From Escherichia phage EcoDS1: a stretch of DNA of 39,252 nt. Below the pieces are notes generated by a model. That model made no database searches. It was not told where the DNA came from and was given only the letters and a program-made list of their open reading frames with translations. How positions within the stretch are numbered: the first letter of the stretch is position 1; the number at the start of each line of letters is the position of its first letter. The stretch is from sequence record NC_011042.1. The stretch is one strand, 5' to 3'. Positions 8,027-38,404 of this stretch are shown one piece after another. The translations under genes were made by a program, and so were the position numbers.

Positions 8027-8370
8027 TGAGTGATTATGACCACACCTGCGATGATTGTGGTAAATTATGGTGTAGGGGTGAGTGCCGTAAGGGGATAAAA
8101 GAGACCACACAAGAACCTGTTAACGAGATTGAAGGTGTTCGCACCCCAAGTCACTACATGCTGTTTGAGGACGTTGAGTCCATTCAGGTTATTGCTCGCA
8201 CTATGACAGTAGCTGAGTTCAAAGGCTTCTGCTTAGGGAACGTCCTGAAGTATCGACTCCGAGCTGGTAAGAAGTCTGAGCTTGCGACAATCGAGAAGGA
8301 CTTGGCTAAGGCTGACTTCTATAAGGAACTATTTGCTAAACATAAAGGAGAGTGTCGTGCAGCCGAGTAA
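8026..8370 (+). CDS. gp1.7-like protein (nucleotide kinase family), short form
   Basis: 114 aa; PSHYMLFEDVESIQVIARTMTVAEFKGFCLGNVLKYRLRAGKKSELA..DLAKADFYKELF matches the C-terminal half of T7 gp1.7; the N-terminus is a short Cys-rich segment. Confidence 0.8.
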   Translation: MSDYDHTCDDCGKLWCRGECRKGIKETTQEPVNEIEGVRTPSHYMLFEDVESIQVIARTMTVAEFKGFCLGNVLKYRLRAGKKSELATIEKDLAKADFYKELFAKHKGECRAAE

Positions 8371-11176: not shown

Positions 11177-12868
<1,692 letters not shown>

Positions 12869-17591: not shown

Positions 17592-17996
17592 ATGCTACCA
17601 TATCTCAACTCACGCGAAGGTCGCCACATGTGCGCCTGCCGCCTCTGGGAAGACGGGCAGTCTAACTTCAAGTCATTCGAGGACTTCAAGGCTCATACTT
17701 ACCGTATGGCTGACGAGTTCGAGGGTGAAGAGTACACAATCTACGATGTCTCAGGTCAACCAGTAGCGTATCTCTACATGCTGGCTACCGCATCTTGGCA
17801 CCGACCGACTCCCGGTCTTGATCTTTCAATCGTCGCTATTCGTCGTGACTCGCAGTCCTCCCGCAAGGTTCTTGAGACTGTCAGGCACATCATAGACGAA
17901 GAGTGCAAGCGTTGGGGTCTTGGCTGGTATTCTCGTGTCAAGCATGTTTCCGGGTCGGTAGACATCGTAACAACTAAGGAGATTAACCGTGGGTAA
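17592..17996 (+). CDS. gp7-like protein (134 aa)
   Basis: ORF track; size and position match T7 gene 7. Confidence 0.7.
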   Translation: MLPYLNSREGRHMCACRLWEDGQSNFKSFEDFKAHTYRMADEFEGEEYTIYDVSGQPVAYLYMLATASWHRPTPGLDLSIVAIRRDSQSSRKVLETVRHIIDEECKRWGLGWYSRVKHVSGSVDIVTTKEINRG

Positions 17997-18237
17997 ATCA
18001 ATCAGTAAGGCTTTCAAGAAAGTGGTGAACAGTGCGTTAGGGACCGTTGGTCTTGGCTCTAACGACGCGCCTAAGGTTGTTGAGGCTCAGACCCCAGCAT
18101 CACCAGTGGAAGTACCGAACGACAAAGTGGAGGATGTGGATACTGAAGCAACCGCATCTGACGAGAAGAAAGTGAAGCGTTCCGGTAAGCGTAGCCTTCA
18201 GGTCTCTCGCACCTCTGGTGGCGGTATTTCTATTTAA
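17989..18237 (+). CDS. gp7.3-like tail-associated protein
   Basis: 82 aa; GTG start after an AAGGAG RBS; MGK N-terminus and SGKRSLQVSRTSGGGISI C-terminus resemble T7 gp7.3. Confidence 0.75.
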   Translation: MGKSISKAFKKVVNSALGTVGLGSNDAPKVVEAQTPASPVEVPNDKVEDVDTEATASDEKKVKRSGKRSLQVSRTSGGGISI

Positions 18238-18248
18238 GGAGGTGACTA

Positions 18249-19817
18249 ATGGCTGAACGTGAAGGGTTCGCTGCTGAAGGAGCCAAAGCGGTCTATGACC
18301 GACTGAAGAACGGTAGACAGCCATATGAGACACGCGCTCAGAATTGTGCTGCTGTCACTATCCCGTCACTGTTTCCTAAGGAGTCCGACAACTCGTCTAC
18401 TGAGTACACCACTCCGTGGCAGTCTGTAGGTGCTCGCTGCTTGAACAACTTGGCTGCAAAGCTGATGTTGGCGTTATTCCCTCAGTCACCGTGGATGCGA
18501 CTGACAGTCTCCGAATATGAGGCAAAGACCTTGAGTCAGGACTCAGAGGCTGCTGCTCGTGTTGACGAAGGGCTGGCTATGGTCGAGCGCGTGTTGATGG
18601 CCTACATGGAGACTAACAGTTTCCGTGTCCCATTGTTTGAGGCTCTTAAGCAGCTTATAGTCTCAGGTAACTGTCTGCTCTACATTCCAGAGCCTGAACA
18701 GGGAACCTACAGTCCCATGCGAATGTACCGCTTAGTGTCCTACGTTGTCCAACGTGATGCGTTCGGTAACATCTTGCAGATTGTGACTCTAGACAAGGTA
18801 GCGTTTAGTGCTCTACCGGAAGACGTGAAGTCTCAACTCAACACAGACGACTATGAGCCTGACACCGAGCTTGAAGTGTATACGCACATCTACCGTCAGG
18901 ACGACGAGTATCTGCGCTACGAGGAAGTGGAAGGCATTGAGGTGACAGGGACCGATGGTTCCTACCCGCTGACTGCATGTCCATACATCCCGGTACGAAT
19001 GGTTCGACTGGATGGTGAAGACTACGGTCGTTCTTACTGCGAGGAGTATCTGGGAGACCTCAACTCGCTGGAGACGATTACAGAAGCTATCACCAAAATG
19101 GCTAAGGTAGCCTCCAAGGTGGTTGGCCTCGTTAACCCGAACGGTATCACGCAACCTCGACGTCTGAACAAGGCGGCTACAGGCGAGTTCGTGGCTGGTC
19201 GCGTTGAGGACATCAACTTCCTGCAACTGACGAAAGGTCAGGACTTTACGATTGCTAAGTCGGTTGCTGACGCTATCGAGCAACGTTTAGGCTGGGCCTT
19301 CCTTCTTAATAGTGCTGTTCAGCGTAATGCCGAGCGTGTCACTGCTGAAGAGATTCGTTATGTTGCTGGCGAACTGGAGGCGACCTTAGGTGGCGTGTAC
19401 TCAGTTCAGTCACAAGAGCTTCAGTTACCTATAGTCCGTGTGCTGATGAACCAACTTCAGTCTGCGGGCATGATTCCTGACCTTCCGAAAGAAGCGGTAG
19501 AGCCTACTGTCTCCACAGGTCTGGAAGCTCTGGGCCGTGGTCAGGACTTAGAGAAGCTAACTCAGGCAGTAAACATGATGACCGGGCTACAGCCTCTGCA
19601 ACAGGACCCAGACATTAACTTGCCGACCCTGAAGCTGCGACTGCTGAATGCCTTAGGTATTGACACTGCTGGCTTGCTGCTGACCCAGGACGAGAAGTTG
19701 CAACGTATGGCTGAACAATCCGCTCAAGGAGCTGTGGTCAACGGTGCGTCTGCTGCTGGTGCTAACATGGGCGCTGCTGTAGGTCAGGGAGCTGGTGAGG
19801 ATATGGCTCAAGCCTAA
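18249..19817 (+). CDS. Head-tail connector / portal protein (gp8)
   Basis: 522 aa; size, position and long conserved blocks consistent with T7 gp8. Confidence 0.95.
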   Translation: MAEREGFAAEGAKAVYDRLKNGRQPYETRAQNCAAVTIPSLFPKESDNSSTEYTTPWQSVGARCLNNLAAKLMLALFPQSPWMRLTVSEYEAKTLSQDSEAAARVDEGLAMVERVLMAYMETNSFRVPLFEALKQLIVSGNCLLYIPEPEQGTYSPMRMYRLVSYVVQRDAFGNILQIVTLDKVAFSALPEDVKSQLNTDDYEPDTELEVYTHIYRQDDEYLRYEEVEGIEVTGTDGSYPLTACPYIPVRMVRLDGEDYGRSYCEEYLGDLNSLETITEAITKMAKVASKVVGLVNPNGITQPRRLNKAATGEFVAGRVEDINFLQLTKGQDFTIAKSVADAIEQRLGWAFLLNSAVQRNAERVTAEEIRYVAGELEATLGGVYSVQSQELQLPIVRVLMNQLQSAGMIPDLPKEAVEPTVSTGLEALGRGQDLEKLTQAVNMMTGLQPLQQDPDINLPTLKLRLLNALGIDTAGLLLTQDEKLQRMAEQSAQGAVVNGASAAGANMGAAVGQGAGEDMAQA

Positions 19818-35669: not shown

Positions 35670-35929
35670 CGCAGATGGACTTAGAGAAGTTCCTCTTAAT
35701 GCTAGATACTGAACGTGCTCGACTCATGCTGCAAGACCTGCGGGATGACTCTAAGCGTTCACCTCAGCTTTACAACGCCATTGAGAAGCTACTGGCTCGT
35801 CACAACTTCGTGCTAAGCAAGGTGTCTGTTGACGAGAAGACGCTCGCTGATATGGAGGCCCTGAACGCAGAGTACGATAAGGTGCTCTCCGCTACGGAAG
35901 ATAATGACACTGGATATGGAGTGCAGTAA
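35666..35929 (+). CDS. Terminase small subunit (gp18)
   Basis: 87 aa; RSPQLYNAIEKLLARH matches T7 gp18; ATGA coupling to the holin gene. Confidence 0.9.
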   Translation: MTQMDLEKFLLMLDTERARLMLQDLRDDSKRSPQLYNAIEKLLARHNFVLSKVSVDEKTLADMEALNAEYDKVLSATEDNDTGYGVQ

Positions 35930-35949
35930 ATCTCTTAAGTGTTAGACTC

Positions 35950-35976
35950 AAGGTCATTACTGTATGTAGTGGCCTT
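35950..35976 (+). other. RNase III-type processing hairpin (R18.5-like)
   Basis: AAGGUCAUUAC/GUAGUGGCCUU 11-bp stem with G-U pairs, 5-nt loop; third paralogue. Confidence 0.5.
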
Positions 35977-36039
35977 TATGGTTAACACTAACTAGTGGAG
36001 GAGACTCTACGTGAAATCTGATAAACCGGGAGGGCACCC

Positions 36040-36486
36040 ATGCTCGAATTTTTAAAGAGAGCGGCTCCGTGGTTACTCGCAGCAGTGATGTTTGCTGGGG
36101 GCTACCACACCGCTAACAATAAGTGGGAGGCTAAGATCAATGCAGAATACACCTCGAATCTTAAGGCATCGGAGGATACAAGGCTTGCTGTCCAAGCTGA
36201 AGTCAACAAAGTGTCCAAACGGTTTCAGGACGAAATGTCATCGCTGGAAGGTAGCACTGATAGGATTATTGCTGACCTTCAGTCTGACAATAAGCGGCTG
36301 CGCATCCGAGTCAAAACTACGAGTGGAACCACGCAAAGTGACGGTCGATGCGTCATTGATGGTTACGCCGAACTTGACGAACGAGATGCTAAACGTCTTA
36401 TCGCCATCGGAGTGAAAGGAGACAAATGGATTAAGGCACTTCAGGACACTGTGAGAGCCTTACAGCAAGATAAGGAGACCCCATGA
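36040..36486 (+). CDS. i-spanin (Rz-like, gp18.5)
   Basis: 148 aa; N-terminal TM helix (WLLAAVMFAGGY) followed by charged coiled-coil-like periplasmic region; position as T7 gene 18.5. Confidence 0.85.
   Translation: MLEFLKRAAPWLLAAVMFAGGYHTANNKWEAKINAEYTSNLKASEDTRLAVQAEVNKVSKRFQDEMSSLEGSTDRIIADLQSDNKRLRIRVKTTSGTTQSDGRCVIDGYAELDERDAKRLIAIGVKGDKWIKALQDTVRALQQDKETP
36140..36415 (+). CDS. o-spanin (Rz1-like, gp18.7) embedded in the +1 frame of gp18.5
   Basis: Embedded ORF with hydrophobic stretch VALIGLLLTFSLTISGC and lipobox-like ISGC (Cys codon 36299..36301); start uncertain (ATG at 36140 after GGGAGG, but the pre-Cys region would be unusually long). Confidence 0.45.
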   Translation: MQNTPRILRHRRIQGLLSKLKSTKCPNGFRTKCHRWKVALIGLLLTFSLTISGCASESKLRVEPRKVTVDASLMVTPNLTNEMLNVLSPSE

Positions 36487-36644
36487 TGTGGAAGACTACC
36501 TACATGTTCTTAGATGGCTCTGAGATGCTTGGGTGGCGCTATACAAGCATTGAGTCTGCCTACATGGTGGCTACTGAGGCCCTGACTTCCGGTAAGAACC
36601 AGACGATGTTTGGGTTTAAGGTAACTAAGGAGGTGAAGCATTGA
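36483..36644 (+). CDS. Small ORF (53 aa) between spanin and terminase genes
   Basis: ATG overlaps the gp18.5 stop and its TGA overlaps the gene 19 start; below the ORF-track cutoff; no T7 equivalent known to me. Confidence 0.3.
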
Positions 36645-38404
36645 GTAAAGACTTAGTGGCGCGTCATGCGCTAATGACTGCACGTATGAAGGCAGACTTC
36701 GTGTTCTTCCTGTTCGTCCTGTGGAAAGCTCTGTCACTCCCGGTCCCGACTCGCTGTCAGATTGACATGGCGAAGAAACTATCGGCTGGGGACAACAGGC
36801 GCTTCATCCTACAGGCGTTCCGTGGTATAGGGAAGTCCTTCATTACGTGTGCCTTCGTTGTCTGGAAGTTATGGAACAACCCAGACTTGAAGTTCATGAT
36901 TGTGTCGGCCTCAAAGGAACGAGCCGATGCTAACTCCATCTTCATCAAGAGAATCATCGACCTCATGCCTCAGCTTCAGGAACTCAAACCTAAGCAGGGG
37001 CAGCGAGATGCGGTTATCAGCTTCGACGTTGGACCGGCCAAGCCAGACCACTCACCTTCGGTTAAGTCCGTTGGTATCACTGGTCAGTTGACTGGTAGTC
37101 GTGCTGACATCCTGATTGCCGATGACGTGGAGGTTCCTAACAACTCAGCGACTCAGGCTGCACGAGACCGTCTGTCAGAGCTTGTGAAAGAGTTCGACGC
37201 TATCCTGAAGCCGGGAGGTACAATCATCTATCTGGGTACTCCTCAGAACGAGATGACCTTGTATCGTGAGCTGGAAGGCCGTGGATACACCACTACTATC
37301 TGGCCTGCTCGTTATCCACGTGATAAGAAGGACTGGCAGTCTTACGGCGACCGTCTGGCACCGATGCTTCAGGCAGAGCTGGAAGAGGACCCTGAGTCCT
37401 TCTACTGGCGTCCGACTGATGAAGTACGCTTCGATGATACGGACCTGAAGGAACGCGAGTTGTCATATGGTAAAGCTGGCTTCGCTCTACAGTTCATGCT
37501 TAACCCGAACCTGAGTGATGCAGAGAAGTACCCTCTGAAGCTCCGTGACCTTATCGTAGCAGACTTGGACCCATCGTCCAGCCCAATGGTCTACCAATGG
37601 TTGCCTAACCCTCAGAACAAGCGTGAGGACGTTCCTAACGTTGGACTCATGGGTGACTCATACCACACATATCAGACTGTAGGTTCTGCCTTCAGTTCGT
37701 ACACCCAGAAGATTCTGGTCATTGACCCCAGTGGTCGTGGTAAGGATGAAACTGGCTATGCGGTACTATACCAGCTCAACGGCTACATCTTCGCTATGGA
37801 AGTTGGTGGTATGCGTGGTGGTTATGAAGACTCTACTCTTGAAGCTCTGGCTAAGATTGGTCGTAAGTGGAAGGTCAACGAATACGTCATTGAGGGTAAC
37901 TTCGGTGATGGTATGTACCTTGAGCTATTCAAGCCTGTAGCGGCCCGTATTCATCCTGCTGCTGTAACTGAAGTGAAGAGTAAGGGTCAGAAGGAACTCC
38001 GCATCTGTGACGTTCTGGAGCCTATCATGGGGTCTCACCGACTTATCGTTAACGCTGCTGCTATCGTCCAAGATTACCAGTCGGCCTCTGATAAGGATGG
38101 TGTTCGTAACCCTATCTACTCTCTCTTCTACCAGATGACACGTATCTCTCGTGAACGTGGAGCCTTGGCACACGATGACCGACTTGATGCTCTGGCTATC
38201 GGTGTACAGTTCTTCGTTGAGTCTATGGCTAAGGATGCCAACAAAGGAGAACGTGAAGTCACTGAGGAGTGGCTGGAGGAACAGATGGAGAACCCACGGA
38301 AAGGCTTCGAGTCCATCCACACTGAGTTCTGGGACAATGGGGTACGGGTAACTCACGATACGGACGACGAGCTAGGGCTAGGGTCCTACGTTACGTTCCA
38401 CTAG
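36641..38404 (+). CDS. Terminase large subunit (gp19)
   Basis: 587 aa; [158 protein letters not shown] match T7 gp19; apparent TTG start preceded by AAGGAGGT. Confidence 0.97.

Follow-up and report, generated by a model that had tools for sequence, protein, structure and literature searches.

Gene 19 (terminase large subunit) and gene 7.3 of Escherichia phage EcoDS1 very probably start at UUG and GUG, respectively, which are common alternatives to AUG in bacteria, and both sites appear to be ordinary starts directed by Shine-Dalgarno (SD) sequences. The window analyzed is the whole 39,252-nucleotide stretch of sequence record NC_011042.1, read 5' to 3' on one strand. By DNA similarity, the phage belongs to the genus Kayfunavirus (K1F-like T7-group phages), with 96–98% identity to many isolates. 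In gene 19, initiation would take place at UUG 36641, positioned by a near-perfect SD sequence (AAGGAGGU) 6 nt upstream. In gene 7.3, initiation would take place at GUG 17989, 7 nt after AAGGAG. Both codons would be decoded by the initiator tRNA as fMet to give proteins of 587 and 82 amino acids. Both starts are correct, ordinary, and already known, being present in the deposited annotations of EcoDS1 and K1F.

Start region and product of gene 19

The + strand around the start of gene 19 reads ...ACTAAGGAGGTGAAGCATTGAGTAAAGAC... in the window. The SD sequence AAGGAGGT (36627–36634, + strand) is located within the 3'-terminal codons of the preceding ORF and is separated by a 6-nt spacer, GAAGCA, from the TTG (36641–36643, + strand). 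This TTG opens an ORF of 587 codons (36641–38404, + strand), in agreement with the initial annotation, which had placed the terminase start at a TTG at ideal spacing after an SD sequence. The assignment of the TTG as the initiation codon is based on direct reading, conservation, and homology to the ATG and GTG starts of orthologues. The reading frame is open for merely four codons upstream of the TTG, and no other start-type codon is found in those four.

The positions of the other in-frame start-type codons should be noted, since they are candidates for rival starts. They are GTG at codon 6 (36656), ATG at codon 12 (36674–36676, + strand), and ATG at codon 16 (36686), hereafter GTG-6, ATG-12, and ATG-16. 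ATG-12 is the first in-frame ATG and is used by some public annotations. The initial annotation had described it as 12 codons downstream of the TTG; it is indeed codon 12 but really lies 11 codons downstream, a trivial slip. The same annotation had placed this ATG within sequence that aligns with T7 gp19, and a BLASTP alignment bears this out (window residues 8–100 versus T7 residues 7–99, 78% identity). Because the alignment begins at window residue 8 and T7 residue 7, ATG-12 is situated inside the aligned block, opposite Val11 of T7. GTG-6, ATG-16, and the overlap of the TTG with the upstream stop codon were not mentioned there. In this overlap, the TGA of the upstream ORF (36642–36644, + strand, from ORF reading) shares two nucleotides with the TTG to form TTGA.

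The identity of the 587-residue product as the terminase large subunit is based on the ORF, Pfam and PDB matches, and the deposited EcoDS1 gp19. The protein matches PF22530 (T7 terminase RNase H-like nuclease domain; E = 6.2e-38, 129.8 bits against a cutoff of 27) and PF03237 (terminase ATPase N-terminal domain; 24.1 bits against a cutoff of 22). The match to PDB 8dgc_E, a terminase of 586 amino acids, covers residues 1–579 of both proteins (E = 2.6e-247), and residue 1 pairs with residue 1. PDB 4bij_A (T7 DNA maturase B, gp19) is also matched (E = 2.2e-216). A Walker A-type ATPase motif, FRGIGKSF, is found at residues 60–67 and is identical in T7. Genes 18 and 18.5 precede gene 19 close to the right genome end, a gene order shared with K1F and T7.

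The upstream ORF (36483–36644, + strand) encodes 53 amino acids and is located between gene 18.5 and gene 19; an exact-sequence look-up matches it to an "unknown product" of EcoDS1. It belongs to a 21-member cluster in the protein collection and is intact in one related IMG/VR contig. No Pfam or PHROG match was found for it, nor any tblastn match in the phage collection. Ribosomes completing this ORF would terminate at the start codon of gene 19 itself.

Start region and product of gene 7.3

The SD sequence of gene 7.3 is AAGGAG (17976–17981, + strand), as read directly, and is conserved in all Kayfunavirus loci examined. A 7-nt spacer, ATTAACC, separates it from the GTG initiation codon (17989–17991, + strand), which is matched by an ATG in the alignment to T7 gene 7.3. 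The frame opens six codons upstream of the GTG, and a search for ATG within the ORF found none anywhere in it. The GTG start after AAGGAG claimed for gp7.3 in the initial annotation is thus confirmed, with an ORF of 82 codons. The upstream gene (17592–17996, + strand), which is T7 gene 7-like and is called "6.8" in K1F, encodes 134 amino acids (PHROG 2746, E = 5.9e-48). Because this gene ends at 17996, it overlaps gene 7.3 by 8 nt, GTGGGTAA (17989–17996).

Gene 7.3 (17989–18237, + strand) is directly upstream of the portal gene 8, which starts at 18249. Its product of 82 amino acids is assigned to the T7 virion-assembly/host-range protein family by PF11653 (T7 virion assembly protein; 38.1 bits against a cutoff of 25), by PHROG 1320 (E = 6.9e-24, full length over residues 1–82), and by the deposited EcoDS1 gp7.3. 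The N-terminal M-G-K is common to T7 gp7.3, which starts at ATG. In other genera, ATG-GGN is found at the homologous site, so that all homologues of gene 7.3 begin with M-G.

Among 23 IMG/VR Kayfunavirus contigs, the start codon of gene 7.3 is GTG in 21, ATG in 1, and TTG in 1, and the flanks are otherwise identical. The single TTG belongs to the contig that, like the window, carries the 53-residue insertion. C never occurs at the first base of this codon in the contigs examined. The occurrence of start-competent codons alone at this position fits an initiation codon, a test that is weak by itself with just two substitutions seen.

Shine-Dalgarno strength, conservation, and rival starts

For each candidate start, we calculated the duplex energy of the preceding 20 nt with the 3' end of 16S rRNA (ACCUCCUUA). 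The value for the TTG of gene 19 is −13.3 kcal/mol, and the background of the window has a minimum of −13.4, a mean of −3.1, and a 1st percentile of −10.4 kcal/mol. The value for the GTG of gene 7.3 is −9.1 kcal/mol, beyond the 5th percentile of the window. The + strand of the window contains 49 copies of AAGGAG and the − strand 3; for AAGGAGGT, the counts are 7 and 0. Most of the + strand copies of these motifs are located 4–10 nt before a long ORF. SD placement at both starts exceeds chance, and both take the canonical form of SD-directed non-AUG initiation, that is, a GUG or UUG with a 16S-complementary SD sequence 4–9 nt upstream. At least three further SD-backed non-ATG starts are found in the window.

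RNA folding around the two starts is no more stable than that of shuffled sequences (z = −0.14 and +1.70). A hairpin pairing 36604–36611 with 36636–36643 is predicted, though it is not significant. A promoter and terminator scan of 35900–37000 gave nothing above the shuffle expectation.

To compare the terminase start among relatives, 80 related loci from IMG/VR, more loci found by pattern search, and annotated GenBank records were used. The TTG is found behind AAGGAGG in all 18 distinct Kayfunavirus start contexts and in two metagenome contigs, and the spacing between the SD sequence and the TTG is invariant. Among the 18 distinct Kayfunavirus sequences, one of the eight positions of AAGGAGGT is variable, and the same set differs at three of the six positions in the spacer while the TTG is unchanged. 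The invariance of the TTG has little statistical power, since only one nucleotide can change with a start codon being kept and the sequences are closely related. A metagenome-wide pattern scan gave 86 matches, 84 of which are chance and 2 of which are Kayfunavirus terminase starts, both TTG; with only these 2 of 86 being relevant, the scan adds little power on replacement of the TTG. The TTG is preceded by different genes in different phages: by 18.5 in K1F, SH3, and phages like them, by the 53-residue ORF in the window and one IMG/VR contig, and by an unrelated ORF of 56 amino acids in Baskent_phicoli_1 and Bas105.

T7-group lineages outside Kayfunavirus have an ATG or GTG with an SD sequence 13–19 codons ahead of the conserved DFVxF motif; in the window, the distance is 18 codons. 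Many of these orthologues begin with M-S-K or M-S-x, like the terminase of the window. In two contigs, L008 and L009, the terminases are 97% identical overall, the N-terminal segment is replaced, and an ATG is found at the homologous place. For gene 19 as for gene 7.3, orthologues have their start codons at the homologous position, and every codon seen at that position is start-competent. The orthologous gene 19 of T7 (NP_042010.1; 78% identity over residues 8–100) also has a non-ATG start behind AAGGAGG, and the lengths of the N-termini agree within one residue. Unlike the window, T7 uses GTG rather than TTG with a 4-nt spacer, and the stop codon of its gene 18.5 is 21 nt upstream without overlap. 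The GTG start of T7 gene 19 has been in annotations for a long time, and terminase starts other than ATG are thus familiar in the group. In the case of gene 7.3, T7 differs from the window in having ATG as the start.

It is very unlikely that the terminase starts instead at ATG-12 to give 576 amino acids, with the TTG being coincidental and the strong SD sequence reflecting only coding sequence at the 3' end of the preceding gene. In favor of this reading, no start codon is more efficient than ATG, three public annotations adopt the downstream ATG (see below), and codons 2–11 show no clear coding-type substitution bias. The variable sites at the three codon positions number 6/4/7 in codons 2–11, where the divergent sequence L026 dominates the count, versus 15/5/47 in codons 12–80. 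Translation of codons 2–11 thus rests on homology and the start-site signals, as a clear third-position bias is not seen; the short N-terminal tail of the terminase appears to be weakly constrained, judging from these sequences. Against a start at ATG-12, this codon lacks an SD sequence, its duplex energy (−1.7 kcal/mol) being weaker than the mean of the window. It is also not conserved, as codon 12 is a Val codon in the ZG49-like contig L159 (GTG) and in T7 (GTA). A start there truncates residues that align with the T7 and PhiV-1-type terminases and leaves 7 residues before DFVxF, whereas the SD-backed starts in relatives with at least 60% identity leave 13–22. Furthermore, the 576-residue product is absent from a collection of 15 billion proteins, in which the 587-residue product is present.

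Initiation at the TTG together with one of GTG-6, ATG-12, or ATG-16, giving two terminase isoforms in the manner of gp4A/4B, is less likely still. The three in-frame start-type codons within 16 codons would allow it, and internal starts do exist in the T7 group, as K1F annotates 4A/4B, 3/3B, and 3.5/3.5B. However, the internal candidates all lack an SD sequence (−2.2 kcal/mol for GTG-6 and +0.7 kcal/mol for ATG-16, in addition to the value for ATG-12 above), none is conserved outside the genus, and terminase isoforms are unmentioned in the literature searched. Least probable is that gene 7.3 does not start at GTG 17989, either because an internal GTG (codons 12/13) is used or because the gene is unexpressed. 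This idea draws on the absence of ATG from the ORF, the low complexity of the protein, and its label of "hypothetical protein" in some genomes. Against it, the internal GTGs lack an SD sequence (−3.7 kcal/mol), and no codons but ATG, GTG, and TTG were found at the start position. The family matches described above span the full-length protein, and the N-terminal M-G-K is shared with T7 gp7.3, which is ATG-initiated. Dual initiation and an internal start of gene 7.3 are without support.

Implications for annotation and expression

The deposited EcoDS1 gp19 (ACF15831.1/YP_002003787.1) is identical from the first to the last residue to the TTG-initiated product of 587 amino acids, and the deposited gp7.3 (ACF15813.1/YP_002003769.1) is likewise identical to the GTG-initiated product of 82 amino acids. 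The K1F record AM084414 resembles the window in having the TTG of gene 19 behind AAGGAGGT with a 6-nt spacer and a TTGA overlap, and the GTG of gene 7.3 behind AAGGAG with a 7-nt spacer. The difference is that 18.5 (Rz-like spanin) ends on the TTG in K1F, whereas the 53-residue ORF is inserted between 18.5 and 19 in the window.

An effect of the non-ATG starts on annotation had been claimed initially, and the public records of close relatives do disagree on the terminase start. The TTG is annotated in EcoDS1, K1F AM084414, Peacock (together with the RBS), and Bas105. The downstream ATG is annotated in K1F DQ111067/NC_007456, SH3 (KU687349/NC_031123), and Baskent_phicoli_1. The SH3 terminase is listed as 577 amino acids with "TCAGGCGCTtATG", the authors having chosen ATG (PMC4925675). 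Choice of the downstream ATG has left the terminase models in K1F NC_007456, SH3, and Baskent_phicoli_1 11 residues short. Since the comparative evidence favors the TTG, these truncated models should be extended. In the literature searched, neither discussion of these particular starts nor experimental N-termini, N-terminal peptides, or ribosome profiling for EcoDS1, K1F, or relatives was found.

In compact operons of phages and bacteria, overlapping stop and start codons of the ATGA, GTGA, or TTGA type provide translational coupling. As in such systems, the upstream stop codon in the window overlaps the start, and the SD sequence is situated inside the upstream coding sequence. Given that the preceding gene runs into the start codon at both sites (TTGA and the 8-nt overlap described above), coupling by termination and reinitiation is likely, and ribosomes finishing the upstream ORF would probably re-initiate at the overlapping start as well. 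Unlike strictly coupled systems, the strong SD sequences in the window could also support independent initiation.

In E. coli reporters, GUG and UUG initiate at 10–100% of the level of AUG with an N-terminal Met, and UUG starts account for approximately 3% and GUG starts for approximately 14% of E. coli genes (bioRxiv 10.1101/063800). We infer that the two codons are used in vivo, that coupling probably operates at them, and that they may have a role in tuning expression. The combination of a weaker start codon with a very strong SD sequence would plausibly lead to moderate output. An effect of the non-ATG starts on expression level, also claimed initially, may be expected. Moderate output would suit both gene products, one being a catalytic packaging enzyme and the other a minor virion protein.

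Non-AUG starts of the terminase recur in the T7 group, with UUG invariant in Kayfunavirus and GUG in T7 and several other lineages, and in the T7-group lineages compared they are always paired with a near-perfect SD sequence. A broader reading, which we regard as possible but rather doubtful, is that the non-AUG start of the terminase is a selected throttle on expression and that the conserved AAGGAGGTGAnnCnTTGA module of Kayfunavirus could also be a fixed docking point for small ORFs. Different accessory ORFs could have been inserted at AAGGAGGTGAnnCnTTGA by recombination at SD microhomology, each taking over the stop codon of gene 18.5 together with the codons just before it. If this is true, docking would keep translation of the terminase coupled to whatever lies upstream. 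The main value of the two starts is in annotation hygiene, with no new biology revealed, and the choice of start is relevant to expressing these terminases or using them as phylogenetic markers.

Annotation of the terminase start in relatives

The start of the terminase gene (gene 19, 36641–38404, plus strand) is annotated inconsistently across public records of relatives (loci L001, L164, L165, L002, L166, and L003). The TTG corresponding to position 36641 is annotated in K1F (AM084414), Peacock, and Bas105, and the Peacock record also carries an RBS feature for it. The downstream ATG (codon 12 in the window) is annotated in K1F (DQ111067/NC_007456), SH3, and Baskent_phicoli_1; the two records of K1F thus conflict with each other. 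The terminases of two IMG/VR Kayfunavirus contigs, L008 and L009, should also be noted. These are 97% identical overall to that of the window, with about the first 17 residues replaced (MSKKTPVERQAEMTRRM..., around position 1201), and start at an ATG preceded by GGAGG. The arrangement resembles a mosaic junction lying just within the terminase gene.

Other non-ATG starts in the window

Besides those of the terminase and gene 7.3 (GTG, 17989), non-ATG starts backed by Shine-Dalgarno (SD) sequences are found at 8357, 12880, 16847, and 9323. GTG 8357 opens a 31-residue homologue of gene 1.8, whereas K1F gene 1.8 has an ATG one codon upstream of the matching position. TTG 12880 opens a 54-residue homologue of gene 4.3, and is replaced by GTG in K1F. 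GTG 16847, preceded by AAGGAGGT, opens a 30-residue hydrophobic peptide after gene 6; K1F conserves this peptide, although AM084414 has no annotation for it. GTG 9323 or ATG 9326 is the counterpart of K1F "2.55". In the internal start region (4B) of the primase/helicase gene (11322–11338), ATG 11330 (codon 51), the 4B start as annotated in K1F, is separated from AAGGAG by just 2 nt, and the in-frame TTG 11336, two codons further, lies at a more usual spacing of 8 nt.

The start codon of gene 7.3 is TTG instead of GTG in IMGVR_UViG_3300045988_000139 (L088/L179) and ATG in L093/L172. The 90%-identity protein cluster containing gp7.3 also includes proteins of 122–140 residues, which are encoded by the upstream gene 7-like gene and are not gp7.3. 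This mixing seems to be an artefact of how the protein collection was clustered.

Insertion and predicted hairpin upstream of the terminase gene

Compared with K1F and SH3, the window has a 155-bp insertion at about 36478–36632, which brings in a 53-residue ORF (36483–36644) of no known family. Direct repeats of TAAGGAG (36471–36477 and 36626–36632), themselves ribosome-binding sites, flank the insertion. The C-terminus of gene 18.5 is thereby changed to ...QQDKETP*, and its former last codons (KEVKH*), the SD sequence, and the TTGA junction now belong to the inserted ORF. Among the IMG/VR sequences examined, only IMGVR_UViG_3300045988_000139 shares this insertion. Baskent_phicoli_1 and Bas105 have an unrelated 56-residue ORF at the identical site, with the 3′ module in common. 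The repeats and the unrelated ORFs at one site beside a common 3′ module suggest that these insertions arose by recombination at SD microhomology.

A hairpin is predicted at 36604–36643, where 36604–36611 within the inserted ORF pairs with the spacer and the TTG (36636–36643). This hairpin is probably meaningless, since its predicted stability is not above that of shuffled sequence (z = −0.14). If it were real, initiation of the terminase would require translation of the upstream ORF.
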